From a virus (lineage: Duplodnaviria > Heunggongvirae > Uroviricota > Caudoviricetes), in IMG/VR virus record IMGVR_UViG_2547132488_000009, positions 1 to 25,241 of that record: a DNA stretch of 25,241 bases; one strand, given 5' to 3'. Numbering within the stretch: position 1 is the first letter of the stretch; each line of letters starts with the position of its first letter. Position numbers and translations under genes: made by a program. Positions 1 to 21,841 of the stretch are shown in pieces. Below the pieces are notes generated by a model that was not told where the DNA came from, did not search any database, and saw nothing but the letters and a program-made list of their open reading frames with translations.

Positions 1-378
1 AATTTCAAAAGCATCAATGACAAATGGGGGCATCATATGGGTGATCAAGTCATAGTAATGGTTACCAGAATAATAAAAAAATCCATCAGGAAAGAGGATA
101 TATTAGGGCGCTTAGGCGGTGAGGAGTTCGGTATTATCATTAAAGGTAATACTCAAAAGCTCTTGCTATCAATTGCAGAGCGAATCAGAAAAAACATTGA
201 AGAGCAATGCTCGGAAAAATTATTATCGCATGGACCTGAGAAAATAACTGTCAGTATTGGTTGCTTTACTTCAAAAGAGAATAATCTCAGTCCATCTGAA
301 ATGTTAGTCAATGCCGATAAAGCGTTATATCAAGCCAAAAGAACCGGAAAAAACAAGGTGATAACTCACTCAAAATAA
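1..378 (+). CDS. Diguanylate cyclase, GGDEF domain C-terminal part (5' end lies outside the window)
   Basis: Frame is open from position 1 (NFKSINDKWGHHMGDQ...). It contains a GGEEF active-site motif preceded by an RxxD I-site (RKED) at the usual spacing, and a C-terminal ALYQAKRTGKNKV motif typical of GGDEF domains. The region is markedly AT-rich. Confidence 0.8.
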   Translation, partial: NFKSINDKWGHHMGDQVIVMVTRIIKKSIRKEDILGRLGGEEFGIIIKGNTQKLLLSIAERIRKNIEEQCSEKLLSHGPEKITVSIGCFTSKENNLSPSEMLVNADKALYQAKRTGKNKVITHSK

Positions 379-583
379 ACACCTTTTTAAAATACAGCCC
401 CAATAAACTGCAGAATATTATCCCATATAATATCCTGCTGTTCGTAATGCACTATTCGATAATGGGTCCTGTTGGCCATTCAATATCCGGTGCAGTTGTT
501 GTATTAACACGGTTCAGCAACACCCGATACTTCTTCCAGGCTTCCACCACCAGCACGACAAGATGCCGCATACAGTGACCCAG

Positions 584-778
584 TCAGTCCAGTTTCCAGA
601 CAACCAGTGCGTCACCTTTTTGAAGGCGCTTTAAAGCACGTTTTAATCCAGGTCGGCCTGTCCTTATTCCGCTTAATTTATCTTCAAATATTTGTTCACA
701 TCCTGCACAAACAAGAGCGTTTCGTTGCAGGTCTGTATTCTGGTCATTTGTTGATACCCTTACATAGCCAATCAGCAC
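584..778 (-). pseudogene. pin: Pin/Gin/Hin-family serine DNA invertase, N-terminal fragment only (about 64 codons, truncated)
   Basis: From a GTG start at 778 (GGGAGA Shine-Dalgarno about 6 nt upstream) it reads LIGYVRVSTNDQNTDLQRNALVCAGCEQIFEDKLSG...GDALVVWKLD, the invertase catalytic N-terminus with the active-site Ser region. A stop follows directly after KLD, and none of the three minus frames of 379..583 encodes the expected RLGRS... continuation. Confidence 0.85.
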
Positions 779-832
779 GCTGAATCTCCCGTCCAAAAGC
801 ACAAATCATGCCATGCAGGCCAGAAACCGCCA

Positions 833-858
833 TTATCTAAAACCTCGGTTTACAGGAA
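833..858. promoter_or_regulatory. gix/pix-type 26-bp inversion crossover site (left)
   Basis: TTATCTAAAACC-TC-GGTTTACAGGAA: two 12-bp half-sites around a central dinucleotide, differing by one base from the Mu gixL sequence as I recall it. It is the inverted partner of the site at 3886..3911. Confidence 0.8.
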
Positions 859-1803
859 ACGGTAAATCAGGCTTCTGGCGCATTACAGAAAAACCAGAAC
901 GGCGCAGATATTCCGGGAAAAGATACCTTCACCAAAAACATTGGTGCCTGCCGCGCATATAGCGCATGGCTGAATATTGGTGGCGATAGTCAGGTCTGGA
1001 CAACTGCGCAATTTATTTCGTGGCTGGAGAGTCAGGGGGCATTTAACCATCCTTACTGGATGTGCAAAGGCTCATGGGCTTATGCAAATAATAAGGTTAT
1101 TACAGATACAGGTTGCGGAAATATTTGTCTTGCAGGTGCTGTGGTGGAAGTTATTGGCACTCGCGGCGCAATGACCATACGCGTTACTACGCCGAGCACG
1201 TCCAGCGGTGGCGGAATTACTAACGCTCAATTCACTTATATTAATCATGGTGATGCTTACGCTCCTGGCTGGCGACGAGACTACAACACGAAAAACCAGC
1301 AGCCTGCATTTGCTTTAGGGCAAACAGGACGCAGGGTCGCAAATGATAAAGCTGTTGGCTGGAACTGGAATAGCGGTGTTTATGATGCAGATATCAGTGG
1401 TGCATCGACATTAATCCTCCACTTCAATATGAATGCGGGGAGTTGCCCTGCTGTACAGTTCCGCGTGAATTACAGGAACGGCGGTATTTTTTATCGTTCA
1501 GCGCGTGATGGTTATGGCTTTGAAGCTAACTGGTCAGAGTTTTACACCACAACACGCAAACCCTCTGCGGGGGATGTTGGTGCATATACGCAGGCAGAAT
1601 GTAACTCAAGGTTTATTACAGGTATTCGCCTTGGCGGTCTGTCATCTGTTCAGACATGGAAAGGCCCCGGCTGGTCTGACAGGTCAGGTTATGTCGTTAC
1701 GGGTTCAGTTAACGGAAACCGTGCTGAATTAATTGATACAACTCAGGCAAGGCCAATTCAGTATTGCATTAATGGGACGTGGTATAACGCGGGGAGTATT
1801 TAA
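841..1803 (+). CDS. Alternative side-tail-fibre C-terminal cassette, silent in this orientation (no start codon of its own)
   Basis: The frame is open from the stop codon inside the left crossover site and reads NLGLQETVNQASGALQKN..., the same junction peptide as Stf at the right site. It ends ...RPIQYCINGTWYNAGSI, parallel to the expressed Stf end ...RPIQKYINGTWYNVVQV. Confidence 0.75.
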   Translation, partial: NLGLQETVNQASGALQKNQNGADIPGKDTFTKNIGACRAYSAWLNIGGDSQVWTTAQFISWLESQGAFNHPYWMCKGSWAYANNKVITDTGCGNICLAGAVVEVIGTRGAMTIRVTTPSTSSGGGITNAQFTYINHGDAYAPGWRRDYNTKNQQPAFALGQTGRRVANDKAVGWNWNSGVYDADISGASTLILHFNMNAGSCPAVQFRVNYRNGGIFYRSARDGYGFEANWSEFYTTTRKPSAGDVGAYTQAECNSRFITGIRLGGLSSVQTWKGPGWSDRSGYVVTGSVNGNRAELIDTTQARPIQYCINGTWYNAGSI

Positions 1804-1805
1804 CG

Positions 1806-2339
1806 ATGATGCACTTAAAAAACATTACTGCTGGCAACCCTAAAACAAAAGAGCAATACCAGCTAACAAAGCAATTTAACATCAAATGGCTTTATTCAGA
1901 TGATGGAAAAAACTGGTATGAGGAACAAAAGAATTTCCAGCCAGACACTTTGAAAATGGTCTATGACCATAACGGCGTTATTATTTGTATTGAAAAGGAT
2001 GTTTCAGCAATTAATCCAGAGGGTGCAAGCGTCGTTGAATTACCTGATATTACAGCAAATCGCCGGGCTGATATTTCGGGGAAATGGATGTTCAAAGATG
2101 GCGTAGTGATAAAGCGAACTTATACCGAGGAAGAGCAGAGGCAACAAGCGGAAAATGAAAAGCAAAGCCTGTTGCAACTTGTCAGGGATAAAACCCAGCT
2201 ATGGGACTCACAGCTACGGCTGGGCATCATTTCCGACGAGAATAAACAAAAATTAACCGAGTGGATGCTCTATGCGCAGAAAGTCGAATCTACAGACACT
2301 TCCGGCCTGCCAGTAACGTTTCCCGAACAACCAGAATGA
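1806..2339 (+). CDS. tfa: Tail fibre assembly protein Tfa, partner of the silent cassette
   Basis: 177 aa starting [40 protein letters not shown], the conserved Tfa N-terminus. It starts 2 nt after the cassette stop. Confidence 0.85.
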   Translation: MMHLKNITAGNPKTKEQYQLTKQFNIKWLYSDDGKNWYEEQKNFQPDTLKMVYDHNGVIICIEKDVSAINPEGASVVELPDITANRRADISGKWMFKDGVVIKRTYTEEEQRQQAENEKQSLLQLVRDKTQLWDSQLRLGIISDENKQKLTEWMLYAQKVESTDTSGLPVTFPEQPE

Positions 2340-2342
2340 GAG

Positions 2343-2362
2343 AAGGCCCGCTATCGGGCCTT
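2343..2362. terminator. Hairpin between the convergent tfa genes (possible bidirectional terminator)
   Basis: AAGGCCCG-CTAT-CGGGCCTT, a perfect 8-bp stem with 4-nt loop, followed on the plus strand by AATTTTTA. Confidence 0.5.
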
Positions 2363-2367
2363 AATTT

Positions 2368-2895
2368 TTACTCTGGTTTTTGTGGCCATTCAGGATTTGC
2401 CGTATCCACACGGCTGACCAGAACACTGTAGCGTTCCCATGCTTCCAGTCGTGTGCGTTCCTCGTCTGTTGCCATATTCAGCCTGACAGCGCGTTCCAGC
2501 GGTTGGATGACTGATTCAGCTTCGGAAAGCAATGCGGCCTTTTGTGATTCGGCCTGTTGTTGTTGCTCGTCTGCCGTATAAATCCGTTTAACCACAGCTC
2601 CGTCCCTAAACATCCACTTACCGGAATCATCAGCGCAGCGGTTGGCTGTAATATCTGGAACCTCAACGACGCTATAACCTTCAGGGTTAAGCGTGGAGGC
2701 ATCTTTGGTGATGGCGACAATAATATTATTTGCATCGTAAACAATCTTTATTGTGTCTGGCTGAAAGTTTTTCACTTCCTCATACCAGTTTTTTCCGTCT
2801 TCGGACCATAACCAGATAACATCAAAATTCTTTGTTAGCTGATATTGTTCTTTTGTTTTTGGATTTCCAGACTTAATATTTTTTAAATGCTGCAT
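2368..2895 (-). CDS. tfa: Tail fibre assembly protein Tfa, partner of the expressed fibre C-terminus
   Basis: 175 aa starting [40 protein letters not shown]. It is a paralogue of the plus-strand tfa with a divergent C-terminal half and overlaps the stf stop. Confidence 0.85.
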
Positions 2896-2898
2896 AAA

Positions 2899-5472
2899 TT
2901 ACACCTGTACGACGTTATACCATGTGCCATTGATGTATTTTTGTATTGGTCTGAATACTGCCGGATCATCGCCATCAACTGCACCGATAATGCCAAGCCC
3001 CGTAATTGCATGACCTGATTTCTCATACATCACGCCTTTTTGCATAGTCTGAACAACACGTGTACCAAGTCGGACATCTCTCACATAACGTGAGTCAAAA
3101 TTACCATAATTGCCGGGAATAACTTGCGCACCGCAAAGCCAGTTGCCATTGTTGTCCATGTACGCCTGACCATCGGTGCCATTGGCTGTCCTTGAGTTAT
3201 TAATCATGTAGATGCCAAATTGCTTATTCCCCAGTCCACCAATCATAAATTTGCGATCAGCGTGGTCCTGACGAAGTAATGCCTGCGCACCATCGGTGGA
3301 TACCGCATTGCGTCCCAAAATAACATTCTGGTCACGCATATGAATCCACATGCCGGTACTACTGTTAATTGCAAAACGGTTTGCAAATATATCCCCTGTA
3401 ACATCAAGACCATGCCCCATGCTTATCCGACCAGTTCTGAGATTAAGCGTAAAGGGGCGTAGTGGCCCTATATCACCATTTTCTCCCTCATTCTCTCGTG
3501 TAGGGATGATATGCAGGCATTCTTCAGAACGACGAAAAATAGCACCAAAAGATGAATTAAATATCCTCAGTGCATTGACTGTCGATATTTTTACTTCACT
3601 GCTGAAAAGGGCTTTAACAAGGACAGACAAAGCATCCCATTTAAGAGTCATCAGGTCTTTTGTTGTGGTGCTCTGGCGGCTTCTCCATTTGAAATATTCA
3701 TTGCCGTTGTCGCCTGTTTCAAACCACATGTATGAATCAGTGTCGCTGTCGGCATTATTTTTAAAACCAATCTTTGCCCAGTCAGTATTTCTAATCCAGG
3801 CAAGGATTGAGTCGTTTTCAAAAGTAAGCCCACCGGACAAGGTATCGCCATTCTTTTGCACGGCGTTCCTGGCCCTGTTTACCGTTTCCTGTAAACCGAG
3901 GTATTCGATAACGGCAGCAACGGTCGATTTCGCAAGAATATCCCGCCCGACTTTTGTCAGGGTTGCCAGGCTGGCGACATCATTCCCCGTAAAATACGGA
4001 AACCTGTCTGCCGCAGTAGCAAGCCCGGCCAGCGCCGTCAGGGTGGCATCTTTCGGTTGCTTACCCGCAAGCGCGTTAGTCATGGTGGTCGCAAAATTCG
4101 GGTCGTTTCCCAGCGCCGCCGCTAACTCGTTCAGCGTATTCAGTGCGTCAGGTGACGAATCTACAAGGGCGGCAATCGCAGCCATAACGAAAGCCGTGCT
4201 TGCGATTTGGGTATTATTAGTTCCCTGTCGCGCAGTTGGCGTTGTTGGTGTTCCGGTCAGTGCCGGGCTGTTTAATGGGGCTTTCTTGTTTGTTTCATCC
4301 ATTACCGCCTTAACCGCTTTCGATGTCGCGGCCAGTGTTTCAGACGTGCTGTTGGTATCACTACTGAGTTGTACTATCCCCTTTTTCGTCGTACTCGCAT
4401 CCTCAAGCGCCACAGCGGATGCAATATCCTCTGCCCGTTTTGCTGCCGTCCCGGCGCGCGTTGCTGCGGATTCTGCCGCACTTTTGCTCTGTGCTGCCGC
4501 CGTCGCACTGCCAGCTGCCTCTGTCGCCTTCGTGGATGCCGTCGTGGCGCTGCCTTTCGCTGCTGACGCCTGTTTAGTCGCCTCATCTTTTGAAGCAGAC
4601 GCAGATGATGCCGATGACGCCGCCGAACTGGCGGACGATGCGGCTGCCGTTTTTGAGGATTCGGCACGGGTTTCCGACGCTTTCGCATTCGTCTCAGATG
4701 TCTTCGCTGCGGAAGCAGACCTCGCAGCTGCAGTGGCCTGTTCAGTGACTTCGCCAGCCTTCGTTGTGGCTGTTGAAGCGGACGATGCAGCGCTTTCTGC
4801 CGATTTTTCAGCGGCGGTAACGCTGGCTGCCGCATTCGTTTCTGACGTTTTCGCTGCACCGGCACTGGTGGCCGCCGCGCTTTTTGAGGACTCTGCAGCA
4901 GCAGCACTTTTCGATGCCTCAGAGGCTTTTGCTGATGCCGTTCCTGCGCTGGAAGACGCTGACTGAGCCGACGACACGGCCTGTCCGGCTGACGTGCTGG
5001 CTGCGCGTGCTGAGTCTGCAGCATCAGTCGCATGGGTTGCCGCCTCACGGGCTGATGTGCTGGCATCGCCGGCTGACTTCTTCGCGGCTGCCGTGTTCTG
5101 TGCCACTGCGGACGCGTTACGCGCCACCTCTTCCACCATCACTTCAAAACGGCGCAGTGCCTCCGGCATAACATCCTCTTCCGTCATGGCACCGAGAAAA
5201 TCATTCAGCGTACCGGGTTGAGAATCTTCATACACGGTGATGGTCCCGGCATGTGACGGCGGGAATCCCTCCACCAACAGACTGACGCTGTACTGACCGT
5301 ACTCAACGTCCATACTGTAACGCCCGGCTTCATCCGGATTTTCAGAGGCCACCGTGTTCACCACAACCGTGGTGCTGTTACGTTTTGCTTTGAGCTGAAT
5401 GGTGCAGTTCTGTATCGGTTTTCCTGCACCGTCTTTCAGCACGCCTGAGATTTTTACTGCTGCCATATCCAC
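2899..5472 (-). CDS. stf: Side tail fibre protein Stf (constant N-terminal part plus the currently joined variable C-terminus)
   Basis: 857 aa. The N-terminus (MDMAAVKISGVLKDGAGKPIQNCTIQLKAKRNSTTVVVNTV...) matches lambda Stf as I recall it. It has a long Ala/Ser/Thr-rich central region and crosses the right crossover site near residue 525. The start could instead be the third codon (5466). Confidence 0.9.
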   Translation of the reverse strand: MDMAAVKISGVLKDGAGKPIQNCTIQLKAKRNSTTVVVNTVASENPDEAGRYSMDVEYGQYSVSLLVEGFPPSHAGTITVYEDSQPGTLNDFLGAMTEEDVMPEALRRFEVMVEEVARNASAVAQNTAAAKKSAGDASTSAREAATHATDAADSARAASTSAGQAVSSAQSASSSAGTASAKASEASKSAAAAESSKSAAATSAGAAKTSETNAAASVTAAEKSAESAASSASTATTKAGEVTEQATAAARSASAAKTSETNAKASETRAESSKTAAASSASSAASSASSASASKDEATKQASAAKGSATTASTKATEAAGSATAAAQSKSAAESAATRAGTAAKRAEDIASAVALEDASTTKKGIVQLSSDTNSTSETLAATSKAVKAVMDETNKKAPLNSPALTGTPTTPTARQGTNNTQIASTAFVMAAIAALVDSSPDALNTLNELAAALGNDPNFATTMTNALAGKQPKDATLTALAGLATAADRFPYFTGNDVASLATLTKVGRDILAKSTVAAVIEYLGLQETVNRARNAVQKNGDTLSGGLTFENDSILAWIRNTDWAKIGFKNNADSDTDSYMWFETGDNGNEYFKWRSRQSTTTKDLMTLKWDALSVLVKALFSSEVKISTVNALRIFNSSFGAIFRRSEECLHIIPTRENEGENGDIGPLRPFTLNLRTGRISMGHGLDVTGDIFANRFAINSSTGMWIHMRDQNVILGRNAVSTDGAQALLRQDHADRKFMIGGLGNKQFGIYMINNSRTANGTDGQAYMDNNGNWLCGAQVIPGNYGNFDSRYVRDVRLGTRVVQTMQKGVMYEKSGHAITGLGIIGAVDGDDPAVFRPIQKYINGTWYNVVQV
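3886..3911. promoter_or_regulatory. gix/pix-type 26-bp inversion crossover site (right), inside the stf coding sequence
   Basis: TTCCTGTAAACC-GA-GGTATTCGATAA. One half-site is identical to the left site in inverted orientation and the central dinucleotide is complementary, as required for inversion. It encodes the EYLGLQETVN segment of Stf. Confidence 0.8.
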
Positions 5473-18330: not shown

Positions 18331-20391
18331 TTACGCCGTACATTTCACCAGACCGCGGTGATCAACTGGCGCGACACCTGCGTCAATACGCACTTTCGTT
18401 GTCACGCCATCCACACTGAAGCCCTCCATCTGATCAATATATGGCGTATCCACACCGTTGAGATAAGCCACTTCGATGGTATCCGTACCTTTCGCCGCAG
18501 CCAGATAAAAGGTGGTCTGGCTGTTATCATCAAGACGAGGCTCTGCAATAACGGTCGCAAAATCTTTCACCGGGTTAATAATACCGGCGTTAATGTCAGC
18601 CCCCTTGACACTTGAGGAGCGAATGACCTGGTTAGCAACAGACTCCATCGCTGTCGGTACCAGTACGAACGCAGGACGAATATTCAGATGACGCTCCCCC
18701 TCTTTCTGAACGCGCATCAACTGACGGGCTTTATCCAGTGATGCCACGTCCATTGCAGCGTTCTCCAGTACGTTTGCATGTTTCGCTTTATCGAACAGGC
18801 TCACATTATCCGTGGAGATTTTCGGGTTAGATGTCAGAATGGCATAAACCAGATCGGCAATCGTGGATTTTGCCGCACGCCCCAGTTTCATCGGAACATC
18901 GGTCAGCATATTCAGATCATCGTTGATAATGGCCTGACGGGTGATGCTGAACAGTTCACCATAGGTCGCCAGTGCAATCGTGGCCTGTTTATCTCCGGTG
19001 GTGACGTATTTATATTCCGCCCCCTCACGCACCTGACGCAGAGCACTGAAGCCCCCCATACCCACACGATGGGCAATTTTAAAATCAGACAACTGACCTT
19101 TCCGGGTCCACTGTTCGTAAGTCTCAGGGGCTTCTTCCCATCCCTGCAGAATGGCTTTGTTCGCGACATCCAGCAGAATATTACCGAAATCAGACGTACT
19201 GTGCGTGAACGCTGCCCCGACCATCTGCATCGGGTTATACCCGGAAACCCCAATCCCCCTTTCTGTCAGTGACATTCGGGCATATTCACGCAGGGTCATC
19301 CCGTTATAGACGTTATCCTGTTCACGCTCAGCAAATCCGGCACGCGCCATCAGCGCCTGACGGATCCCGTCCCCCACAAAATTACCGTTTCCAGCATAAA
19401 TATGGGCCGGGGTATTTTTATTTGATGGTGAAAATTCCTTACCCATTTCGTTAAGTAATTTCTCACGGGCCTGCTCAAGCGAGCACTCCGGATCGGAAAG
19501 ACAACTGGCCTGCAATGTCTGATAGCGCCCGCCAAACATACCAAACAGTTCATTAATACCACTCACACGTGCTTTTTGCTCTGCCAGTACCTGCGCACGG
19601 ATACTGCTTTCATCTGTGGAAGGTGCATTTGTGGTAGTCGCGGTTGTGGCAACCGGAGCCGTAGTCTGATCCTGTGTCTGAGATGCAGTATTTTTGTTTT
19701 CAGGTTCACGCGTTGCACTGTTGCGTGGCGGAATAATCATATTTCGAATGGATTCCGGCATTTTTTTAAATTCCTCTGTACGTTTTGACTGAATACATGC
19801 CATTGCCTTAACTTCCGGTGTCACCTGGTCAGCAAATCCGTGTGCCAGACATTCGGCACCGGACATCCAGGTTTCATCCGCCAGCATGGCAGCAATTTCA
19901 TCGGTGGTTTTCCCGGTTTTCTGCGCATAAGCAGGCAACAGGACCGACTCAACTTTATCAAGCAGGTCGGCATAATCACGCATATCATCCGCATCGCCAC
20001 CACTCACTCCCCATGGTTTATGGATCATCATGAATGCGTTTTCCGGCATGATGACGGGATCACCCACCATTGCAATGACCGATGCCATGGATGCCGCGAC
20101 ACCATCCACATAAACAGTGATGGACGCCCCATGATTTTTCAGCGCATTAAAAATGGCGATGCCTTCAAAGACATCGCCACCCGGTGAATTGATATGGAGA
20201 TTAATGTGGGTGATATTACCCAGCGCATTCAGATCGCTGACAAACTGCTTCGCCGTAACTCCCCAGAAACCAATCTCGTCATAGATATAAATATCTGCGT
20301 CACTTTTATGACCCGCCTTCATTCTGAACCAAGAATTATTCTTCAGGCTGGCCTTCGGTTCGCCGCGAAACCACGCGTTCTGTTTCAGCAT
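18331..20391 (-). CDS. Single-ORF prohead protease (ClpP/S49-like), linker/scaffold region and major capsid protein (HK97 fold)
   Basis: The start is taken at 20391 (MLKQNAWF, GGAGGTGG upstream). The N-terminus has ClpP-like protease motifs (INSPGGDVFEGIAIFNAL...DGVAASMASVIAMVGD...HKPWG), the centre is a Thr/Ala/Pro-rich linker, and the C-terminal roughly 350 aa is capsid-like (...KVRIDAGVAPVDHRGLVK). Confidence 0.8.
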   Translation of the reverse strand: MLKQNAWFRGEPKASLKNNSWFRMKAGHKSDADIYIYDEIGFWGVTAKQFVSDLNALGNITHINLHINSPGGDVFEGIAIFNALKNHGASITVYVDGVAASMASVIAMVGDPVIMPENAFMMIHKPWGVSGGDADDMRDYADLLDKVESVLLPAYAQKTGKTTDEIAAMLADETWMSGAECLAHGFADQVTPEVKAMACIQSKRTEEFKKMPESIRNMIIPPRNSATREPENKNTASQTQDQTTAPVATTATTTNAPSTDESSIRAQVLAEQKARVSGINELFGMFGGRYQTLQASCLSDPECSLEQAREKLLNEMGKEFSPSNKNTPAHIYAGNGNFVGDGIRQALMARAGFAEREQDNVYNGMTLREYARMSLTERGIGVSGYNPMQMVGAAFTHSTSDFGNILLDVANKAILQGWEEAPETYEQWTRKGQLSDFKIAHRVGMGGFSALRQVREGAEYKYVTTGDKQATIALATYGELFSITRQAIINDDLNMLTDVPMKLGRAAKSTIADLVYAILTSNPKISTDNVSLFDKAKHANVLENAAMDVASLDKARQLMRVQKEGERHLNIRPAFVLVPTAMESVANQVIRSSSVKGADINAGIINPVKDFATVIAEPRLDDNSQTTFYLAAAKGTDTIEVAYLNGVDTPYIDQMEGFSVDGVTTKVRIDAGVAPVDHRGLVKCTA

Positions 20392-21841
20392 TACCACCTC
20401 CTTTATCGCAGGCCGGATCGGTATCAAACACCAGATCCAGCCTGCGGTTTTCATCAATTTCGGCCTTGCGCCGACGTTTAACATCATCCGGATTACGACC
20501 ACTGGCGCGCACCCAGTCTGATTCTGTTGCCGCACCACCACGAATCTGGATTTTCCAGGCTTCAGCTTCCTTGACAGGATCAATCCACGGCATGACCGGA
20601 CCAGAATATGTTGCGTTATATAATGTTTTTATATCCACATCCGACGGAATTTTCAGCAACCCCGCGGCAACCACCATATTCAGCCATGCCCGGTACACCG
20701 GACGGGTTACAGCACCAATAAAACAGTCCTGCAGGATCAGATAGCCATCGGTGGACTCAACCAGCTCCTGTCGCTGGGAACTGTAGGTACCGTTATAGTT
20801 ACGTGCTGCACTGGAAAAACTCAGACGAGTGCCCGCCGCCATGGCCCGCAACTGACCATTACGAAAAGTTTCCAGATTAGGGTTAGGCCGATCAGATTTG
20901 ACCATGCCAATATCTTCCCCCTTACGCAGATCGTCATAAATAATGCCGGGAGTGATATGCAGTTCCCGATCATTATCTTTATTCGTCACAGGTTCCTCAT
21001 AATCCTGCCCGTCTCCTTTACGAATATACAGCCCCAGTGCCGCAGCAATGCGCGCCGCTACCAGCTCAGCATCTTCATATTCCTTAAGCGCACTGATCCG
21101 CATCAGCACACCTGACAACATGGATGTGCCACGCGTCTGATGAAGGCGGCGGGTAAACTTCAGATGCACCATATTTTCAGCGGCGATCTCTTTGGTTTCG
21201 CTCTGTCGCCCGGTAACCGGATAATTTTTATAAACCAGGTATTTTTTCGGCCTGCCCCATTCATCCAGAAAAACCCCCTGATTCATTCCCGCAGACTCAT
21301 CACTGAGCATGGGCACAAAATCCGGCTCCATTGCCTCGAGCCAGAAAGGCACACCGGCAGTCCGCGCCAGCCCGGCACCTGCGCCTCTGACCATCTGGGC
21401 AAACACTTCTCCATCACGTAACCAGGTACGCAACAGCAGACGTTCGAGCATGGGGCGCGTATGCTGCCCGGTCACATCCGGACTGACAGACCATTCCGCC
21501 CACAAACGACGGATAATCATTGCCAGCTCTGTAGCCATATCACCATTTTTCAGTAATGGTTGTGGTTCAACAATGATCCCCTTTGCACCAATCACCCGCT
21601 CCTCAAGTTTGTCGAAAACACCGATTACCAGGTCATGATTGATGTCCAGAAAACGGGCCTGTTCCCGCAGAGAAACCGCCCCGTACTTACTGAGCTGGTC
21701 GGCAGAACGGTTTTCCCGTCGGGCTTTGTGTGTGCGGGTGGGTTTCACGGCCTCATAAGCGCGAATTAACGCCCTTGAGCGCAACCTCGCAGCTTTCCAG
21801 CCGGGAGAAAAAACACCAATCACATCATCAAGAATTGCCAT
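20336..21841 (-). CDS. Portal protein
   Basis: 501 aa, between the gpW-like gene and the protease-capsid gene, with a TGATG stop/start overlap with the upstream gene. Size and synteny fit a portal. Confidence 0.72.
   Translation of the reverse strand: MAILDDVIGVFSPGWKAARLRSRALIRAYEAVKPTRTHKARRENRSADQLSKYGAVSLREQARFLDINHDLVIGVFDKLEERVIGAKGIIVEPQPLLKNGDMATELAMIIRRLWAEWSVSPDVTGQHTRPMLERLLLRTWLRDGEVFAQMVRGAGAGLARTAGVPFWLEAMEPDFVPMLSDESAGMNQGVFLDEWGRPKKYLVYKNYPVTGRQSETKEIAAENMVHLKFTRRLHQTRGTSMLSGVLMRISALKEYEDAELVAARIAAALGLYIRKGDGQDYEEPVTNKDNDRELHITPGIIYDDLRKGEDIGMVKSDRPNPNLETFRNGQLRAMAAGTRLSFSSAARNYNGTYSSQRQELVESTDGYLILQDCFIGAVTRPVYRAWLNMVVAAGLLKIPSDVDIKTLYNATYSGPVMPWIDPVKEAEAWKIQIRGGAATESDWVRASGRNPDDVKRRRKAEIDENRRLDLVFDTDPACDKGGGNAETERVVSRRTEGQPEE

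Follow-up and report, generated by a model that had tools for sequence, protein, structure and literature searches.

A Mu G-segment-type tail-fibre switch beside a truncated invertase gene in a lambda-like prophage of Escherichia coli

We describe a tail-fibre switch in a 25,241-nucleotide (nt) stretch of DNA (IMG/VR record IMGVR_UViG_2547132488_000009; hereafter the window), which is Escherichia coli chromosomal DNA from the bio side of att-lambda. Two inverted crossover sites enclose alternative fibre ends, each with its own tfa gene, and the invertase gene expected beside them is reduced to a short stub joined to the 3' end of another tfa gene. The same stub adjoins the segment in both of its orientations in complete genomes and in IMG/VR contigs. 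The reading that we consider probable is that of a fibre switch of the type of the Mu G segment, belonging to a lambda-like prophage at att-lambda, that has lost its own invertase and can still be inverted in trans; we infer that the flips are catalysed by a serine invertase supplied from elsewhere.

As we reconstruct it, one illegitimate recombination would have fused a gin/pin-type gene, broken at codon 77, to the final ~31 codons of a tfa gene, and a nonsense codon at position 65 additionally kills the remnant. What survives in cis are both gix-like sites, both tip/chaperone cassettes, and the 5' ~100 nt of the invertase gene. Inversion would then occur only through an invertase of the Gin/Pin/Cin family or of the PinQ/R type encoded by another prophage or by a plasmid, acting with host Fis on the retained enhancer, and in a cell holding no such enzyme the fibre would stay in its current orientation.

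The fibre switch and its truncated invertase gene

The left gix-like site of 26 base pairs (bp), at 833..858 (TTATCTAAAACC-TC-GGTTTACAGGAA, central dinucleotide at 845-846), is identical at 25 of 26 positions to the Mu gix site that adjoins gin. It belongs to a 38-nt inverted repeat with 92% complementarity between its arms, which include an uninterrupted run of 25 identical bases. The right site, likewise of 26 bp, lies inside the fibre gene at 3886..3911 (TTCCTGTAAACC-GA-GGTATTCGATAA), and the two sites are mutually inverted with the same central dinucleotide (TC/GA). As assembled, the side tail-fibre gene (2899..5472, minus strand; Pfam phage_tail_N and Gp34_trimer) encodes 857 amino acids (aa) and consists of a constant part (3900-5472) and an invertible C-terminal part (2899-3897), the latter followed by the tfa gene of the expressed orientation (2368..2895, minus strand; Pfam Caudo_TAP, E = 7e-38). 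On the opposite strand, a silent alternative C-terminal exon (Sv', 841..1803, plus strand; Pfam gp37_C) is open from the crossover site to its stop and is followed by its own tfa' (1806..2339, plus strand; Caudo_TAP, E = 2e-36). In-silico inversion of 846-3898 replaces the 857-aa fibre with an intact fibre of 843 aa. The layout is thus that of the G-, C-, and P-type segments, with inverted alternative exons that each carry a tfa gene and a constant N-terminal part outside the segment, and the cognate invertase gene that should adjoin it is represented by the 232-nt stub only. All cis-acting parts of a G-segment-type switch are, as far as sequence can tell, present and undamaged, the function of the enhancer being a prediction.

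The initial annotation had described a pin-type invertase gene cut off after about 64 codons, with unrelated sequence in all frames beyond. The first half of this description stands in its essentials. An open reading frame (ORF) is listed at 584..802 (minus strand), and within it the GTG at 776-778 corresponds to the start codon of Mu gin and to that of the invertase gene of a P2-like prophage; from there 64 sense codons run to ...VVWKLD and a TGA at 584..586 (minus strand), where both Gin and PinE have Arg. The encoded protein is identical to residues 1-64 of the 193-residue Mu Gin at 61 of 64 positions (PDB 4m6f/3uj3). Past this premature TGA (codon 65), the same frame continues through 12 further PinE-like codons to position 547 and is then followed by the tfa 3' end, so that the invertase remnant proper, a pseudogene, spans 547..778 (minus strand; 77 codons plus one base). 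The ORF length first given is therefore right, and the breakpoint and the unrelated sequence are not. The assignment to pin was correct as to the invertase family and wrong as to type over the first ~190 nt, the remnant being a mosaic: nt 1-192 of the gene are of the Mu gin type (186 of 192 identical, with 111/111 over nt 1-111), while nt 205-232 match K-12 pinE at 27 of 28 positions and Mu gin at 14 of 28. Over its whole length the stub shares 169 of 232 nt with pinE.

The 64 residues cover only positions 2-73 of the 145 in the Pfam Resolvase profile. They keep the motif YVRVSTNDQ with Ser9, the active-site serine of Gin, and amount to roughly half of the catalytic domain; the E helix, which serves in oligomerisation, and the C-terminal helix-turn-helix DNA-binding domain are missing, the remnant stopping at codon 77. 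No full-length invertase is encoded by the segment or elsewhere in the window, as the initial annotation had stated for the immediate surroundings and as tblastn, Pfam, and alignment to Gin all indicate. Specifically, tblastn with PinE, Mu Gin, the P2-like invertase, and PinQ found no other invertase homology in any frame of the 25,241 nt (other hits E>0.5), and there is thus neither a displaced 3' part nor a simple frameshift, outcomes that would have undone the interpretation as a truncation. In an alignment of the window with 36 related copies, some of which do not span the whole stub, the TGA at codon 65 is without variation, and a second nonsense codon (W61, TGG>TGA) occurs in 19 copies, including that of the sequence type (ST) 131 strain JJ1886. 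Judged by these sequences, the stub ORF is decaying, and the stub is best described as a descendant of the Gin/Hin/Cin/Pin serine recombinases that is predicted no longer to be a functional member of them.

The stretch that bears the gene, 379..802, thus holds three parts, namely intergenic DNA, a tfa remnant, and the invertase remnant. The tfa 3' remnant (452..546, minus strand; stop at 452-454) comprises the last ~31 codons of such a gene, is fused in frame to the invertase remnant, and matches positions 104-130 of the 131 in Caudo_TAP; the annotation by PGAP in strain YSP8-1 is the same. The true breakpoint lies at 546/547: a longer tfa fragment in strain DC71 can be aligned up to position 546 and no further. 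The DNA from the tfa stop to a convergent GGDEF gene is intergenic (379..451, 73 nt), an arrangement common to genomes that carry no invertase stub. Up to 766 complete E. coli genomes match at least 80% of window 300-583, which covers the tfa fragment with the GGDEF gene, and most of these matches end at ~546-549, with the tfa fragment and the GGDEF gene present and the stub absent. Comparison with relatives, which the initial annotation had proposed as a way to learn what replaced the 3' end of the invertase gene, gives the 3' end of tfa as the answer, followed by the GGDEF gene or, in some genomes, by an invertase gene of the PinQ/R type.

The parental sequences share at most scattered identities at 546/547. 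We also considered whether the junction could be a product of the invertase itself and rejected this, as by eye neither parent resembles a gix half-site at that point. Because of these two properties, the junction looks like the product of ordinary illegitimate recombination.

Upstream of the remnant, the region of the ribosome-binding site and promoter (779..832, minus strand) is homologous to the spacer between gin and gix in Mu, as aligned to Mu, UTI89, and JJ1886, and a 68-nt probe (779-846) is 94-100% conserved in related loci where it was matched. In Gin, Hin, and Cin systems, the 5' ~100 nt of the invertase gene form a Fis-bound recombinational enhancer. The presumed counterpart in the window, at 694..756, is 100% identical to Mu gin throughout and contains two candidate 15-bp Fis cores, at 742-756 (TATCAACAAATGACC) and 694-708 (GTGCAGGATGTGAAC), whose centres are 48 bp apart, and the centre of the proximal core and that of the left gix site are separated by ~97 bp. 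This spacing agrees with the layout in Hin and with the ATTTA/TAATG landmarks there. A second candidate pair lies at nt 34-48 and 82-96 of the gene, and its second core departs from the consensus at two of the 7 positions. In Mu, the coding region of gin contains three Fis sites (PMC3378877), the Hin enhancer is located in the N-terminal coding region (PMC2724282), and the ATTTA/TAATG landmarks lie between the Hin Fis sites (PMC3798978). Given the base-for-base identity over nt 1-111, any enhancer that Mu has in this part of gin is also in the stub. The suggestion in the initial annotation that the retained part might still carry the enhancer is borne out to this extent, and the enhancer may be functional.

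One junction, two orientations

The junction between the two remnants has a single origin and is widespread. In 538 of 5,426 complete E. coli genomes (~10%), a 169-nt query across it matched over at least 80% of its length; the exact junction 20-mer occurs in 35 IMG/VR contigs, and in 34 of these the 232-nt remnant is complete and the tfa fragment comes after it. Beyond the tfa remnant, the context varies. In one arrangement, shared by the window and contigs L009, L012, and L015, the GGDEF gene follows at att-lambda. Elsewhere, as at the trp locus of the ST131 strain JJ1886, a methyltransferase gene and a second tfa fragment are found, or else a full-length convergent gene of the pinQ/R type (L006, 551-1141; L022, 4643-5230; strain CFSAN064036, NZ_CP028166.1 around 600837-601297). 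In contig L031 (4539-6393), a full-length gin-type gene lies ~1 kilobase (kb) from the stub in a P2/Mu-like setting. The recurrence of the exact junction in many genomes, and with varied DNA downstream, suggests a single ancient event; recombination has since carried the block that contains it from prophage to prophage, one likely anchor being the conserved tfa 3' end.

Several observations bear on the contexts in their own right. L031 has myovirus-type tail genes and, in order, an intact gin-type gene (201 aa), a gene for an S-adenosylmethionine (SAM)-dependent methyltransferase, and the tfa remnant with the stub; a 68-nt region upstream of gin is duplicated there. This contig is either a recombinant of orphan and intact modules or a hint at how the junction arose. 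In contigs L003 (5153-6336) and L004 (4853-5985), two to three tfa 3' fragments stand in a row with cargo between them (class I SAM-dependent methyltransferase, GGDEF), and recombination seems to use the tfa 3' end repeatedly as an anchor when cargo is inserted downstream of lambdoid fibre genes.

Among phages deposited in GenBank, Mu, D108, SfMu, and P2-like phages have intact gin genes to which the 5' part of the stub is 93-96% identical. When species-representative genomes were scanned for the junction 20-mer, seven hits appeared, six of them short (21-26 nt) chance matches in unrelated phyla. The remaining hit (contig L049, 1-328; JAEWTL010000008.1), a 2.5-kb contig of a metagenome-assembled genome labelled 'Bacillota', is 100% identical to the stub and tfa-remnant region across its 328 nt of overlap with the comparison stretch and is almost certainly a binning contaminant. 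The 20-mer scan is uninformative on any spread to other species, its hits being chance matches and a likely contaminant. In the searchable literature, where most older papers are missing, we found no prior description of the truncated-invertase module.

The orientation of the segment beside this junction was surveyed with 872-nt queries that begin in the tfa-GGDEF intergenic DNA (at 379), cross the tfa remnant and the stub, and take in the segment's first 400 nt. At a coverage of at least 80%, the query in the orientation of the window matched 56 complete genomes, and the query flipped in silico matched 92, the best at 99.9% identity. The IMG/VR contigs repeat this picture within separate sub-lineages. 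In the GGDEF context, L009 has one orientation and L012 and L015 the other; in a second class, with a 100% identical stub, L006 and L017 are set against L008, L022, L025, and L029; and in a class at 99.1%, L038 is set against L018 and L035. Over the 3.09-kb segment, flipped relatives are 99.6-99.7% identical to the window. Since the junction is unique and yet adjoins both orientations of the segment, the inversions postdate the loss of the invertase. Inversion after the truncation has apparently happened more than once, and the segment inverts, as read from genome sequences at the level of the population only.

Source of inversion and alternative explanations

Gin, Cin, Hin, and Pin can substitute for one another. 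Candidate sources of such an enzyme were counted in a census: 3' halves taken from pinE, from two gin-type genes, and from pinQ were appended to the marker query, and the places matched in each genome were tallied against a marker-only search. At least one further chromosomal invertase locus was found in 21 of the 25 sister genomes with the orientation of the window, a count in which a match to an invertase 3' half is no proof of an intact gene. In strain MSI001 a full-length gin-type gene lies elsewhere in the chromosome, the flipped strain ET450 has pinQ, and a pinQ/R gene adjoins tfa in roughly half of the sampled records. On flipped genomes the chimeric query gave no per-genome comparison of invertases, as intact gin-type loci outranked the marker. 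That an invertase of one prophage can act on the segment of another is documented for PinQ of the Qin prophage, which inverts the P segment of e14 (PMC12529663). The initial annotation had left two outcomes for the switch, either an invertase from outside or a fibre locked in place, and the first fits better, given the 56 and 92 genomes of the two orientations, the three sub-lineages in which both occur, and the 21 of 25 sisters with a further invertase locus.

Four results weigh against a switch that works in trans. The junction was found in no isolated phage of the GenBank phage set. The pair of Fis-consensus cores, although it lies within 584..778 where paired Fis-type sites had been anticipated, is not above chance, as 178 of 2000 shuffled sequences (9%) yield a pair 48 bp apart, and we have dropped the consensus scan as independent evidence. 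The enhancer part of the stub shows no significant deficit of variable sites (5 in 100 nt for gene nt 1-100 versus 14 in 132 nt for nt 101-232, among the 36 related copies and the window; Fisher p = 0.15), and the idea of purifying selection on that part was dropped on the same ground. Finally, strains ET474, PSJ-14, PEC1003, and 74-2 (4 of the 25 sisters) have no further chromosomal invertase 3' half at megablast stringency, a search out of whose reach plasmid-borne or more divergent invertases would lie. In these four strains the switch may be locked.

A more specific form of the reading in trans, which we hold only tentatively, would make the stub the retained cis half (gix plus Fis enhancer) of a non-autonomous phase-variation module that would have spread by way of lambdoid prophages to ~10% of sequenced E. 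coli, that, like a non-autonomous transposon, uses the invertases of other elements, and whose natural lambdoid partner would be an orphan invertase of the PinQ/PinR type. If PinQ and PinR are the partners of such an orphan module, the presence in Rac and Qin of an invertase with nothing to invert would be explained. The loci in which pinQ/R stands directly beyond the tfa remnant place an 'orphan invertase' of the Rac/Qin type beside an 'orphan' Gin-type segment, which suggests that the two may be natural partners.

Flipping could also proceed with no invertase at all, by RecA-dependent homologous recombination between the 38-nt inverted repeats. The uninterrupted 25-base identity of the arms and their complementarity over 38 nt speak for this, as do the four sister genomes in which no other invertase was detectable. 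We regard it as unlikely and as less parsimonious than inversion in trans, on three grounds. Repeats of 25-38 bp are near or below the minimum efficient substrate of RecA recombination; the repeats here are bona fide gix sites, one base short of identity with that of Mu, accompanied by a retained enhancer sequence, as a serine invertase needs; and most sister genomes have invertase loci.

Another explanation holds that the switch has been dead since the truncation, and that homologous recombination transplanted the block of stub and tfa remnant beside segments that had already been flipped by an intact invertase next to them, with crossovers in the ~300-bp homology of the gin 5' part and gix and in the tfa 3' end. 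The module is indeed mobile by recombination, given the same junction in several downstream contexts, and the constant part of the fibre diverges to 83-95% identity where the segment is >99% identical. Intact gin-type genes, ~95% identical over the stub, are moreover common in P2- and Mu-like prophages, and L031 has both a stub and such a gene ~1 kb apart. Set against these points, three or more sub-lineages that agree in their cassettes and in the lambdoid constant region each show both orientations, we saw no lambdoid relative with the same cassettes beside an intact gin-type gene, and both alternative ORFs are still open. Repeated transplantation is also less parsimonious than inversion at intact gix sites, and we judge this explanation quite unlikely.

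That the invertase was never lost is scarcely credible, whether the 64-aa ORF (called 'recombinase family protein' by PGAP) is taken for a sequencing or frameshift artefact or for a small protein that is complete and has its own function, as the same TGA and junction recur in hundreds of independent assemblies, the 3' half is absent from every frame of the window, the ORF is half of a catalytic domain that lacks the E helix and the DNA-binding domain, and the W61 nonsense codon in about half of the copies indicates that the ORF is not under selection.

Setting and relation to known systems

The remainder of the window is filled by a lambda-like and apparently intact late region with Ail/Lom, gpJ, and gpA terminase (Pfam). 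In YSP8-1, a near-identical strain, bioA and ybhB are followed by a sensor GGDEF diguanylate cyclase gene, the tfa fragment, the short 'recombinase family protein', and the tail-fibre genes, and the 15-bp lambda att core separates ybhB from the GGDEF gene. Given this position of the core, the GGDEF gene is cargo of the prophage (a moron). It occupies 37-378 (plus strand), has 36% G+C, is convergent with the fibre operon, and continues upstream of the window (window 1-378; contig L001, 4392-6378). The prophage of YSP8-1, the complete genome closest to the window (L001, 7806-10067), is degraded, with a frameshift in the alternative tfa gene and an IS1 element in place of the remaining fibre gene, followed by terminase genes. 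The parts damaged there are intact in the window, where the stf gene encodes 857 aa and gpJ, Lom, and terminase are present. The window also has a 750-aa ORF (18331-20583, minus strand) with a ClpP-type protease domain and a capsid domain (Pfam CLP_protease and Phage_capsid_4), listed with a TTG start, which may represent two genes or a fusion of protease-scaffold and capsid.

Invertible tail-fibre segments are the textbook host-range hedge of temperate phages, and the module described here is a non-autonomous variant of a very well-known system that will, in principle, not surprise a specialist. It is nonetheless widespread, easily testable, and relevant to dependence between prophages. Invertible segments in cryptic prophages can also serve the host as a defence against phages (PMC12529663). 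If our reading is correct, the host range or the defence phenotype of one prophage would depend on the prophages that reside with it, and pipelines that look for an adjacent recombinase would miss switches of this kind. Assemblies of the ~10% of E. coli that carry the module could then differ by a 3-kb inversion that is biological and not technical. The module would also be a natural test system for how much of an invertase gene the function of the enhancer requires.

The closest model is the Mu G segment, with which the window shares 26-bp gix-type sites with a central GA/TC and the order of a constant fibre part, Sv-U, an inverted U'-Sv', and an invertase gene that points in the same direction as the fibre gene. 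It differs in that the invertase gene has only 77 codons, with a stop at codon 65 and pinE-like codons 69-77, in that it belongs to a lambda-like siphovirus prophage (gpJ, Lom, gpA terminase) whereas Mu-like phages are myoviruses, and in that the constant part of its fibre is of the lambdoid Stf type. The nearest intact relative seen in E. coli chromosomes is a module of P2-like prophages (UTI89, WP_000905061.1), which is ~96% identical over window 588-827 and has the same gix site, upstream region, and cassette layout; unlike the window, it has an intact invertase of 199 aa and a context of myovirus tail genes.

Two candidates for kinship were examined and set aside. The pinH pseudogene of K-12 is likewise a decayed pin-family fragment in an E. 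coli chromosome. In contrast to the stub, it is an internal gene fragment with no adjoining invertible segment, and it matches the stub over only 70 nt at 84% identity, for which reason we reject it as the same remnant. Phage lambda was considered as the bearer of a fossil inverted cassette (orf-314/orf206b), an idea that we dropped because orf-401 and orf-314, the two halves of stf, are co-directional and are followed by the tfa gene orf-194; in the lambda record, orf206b merely overlaps orf-401.

Among lambdoid prophages, the P segment of e14 in K-12, with its invertase PinE, is comparable in having invertible stf/tfa cassettes in a defective lambdoid prophage, and its flipping by the invertase of another prophage has been published (PMC12529663). 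Unlike the window, e14 keeps an intact pinE beside its segment. Rac and Qin (stf-tfa-pinR/pinQ) have the same order of a lambdoid stf-tfa pair followed by a convergent gene, and in L006, L022, and CFSAN064036 a full-length gene of the pinQ/R type follows the tfa remnant just as pinQ follows tfaQ. They differ from the window in having an invertase without an invertible segment, which makes them its reciprocal orphans, whereas in the window the place of pinQ/R is taken by the GGDEF gene.

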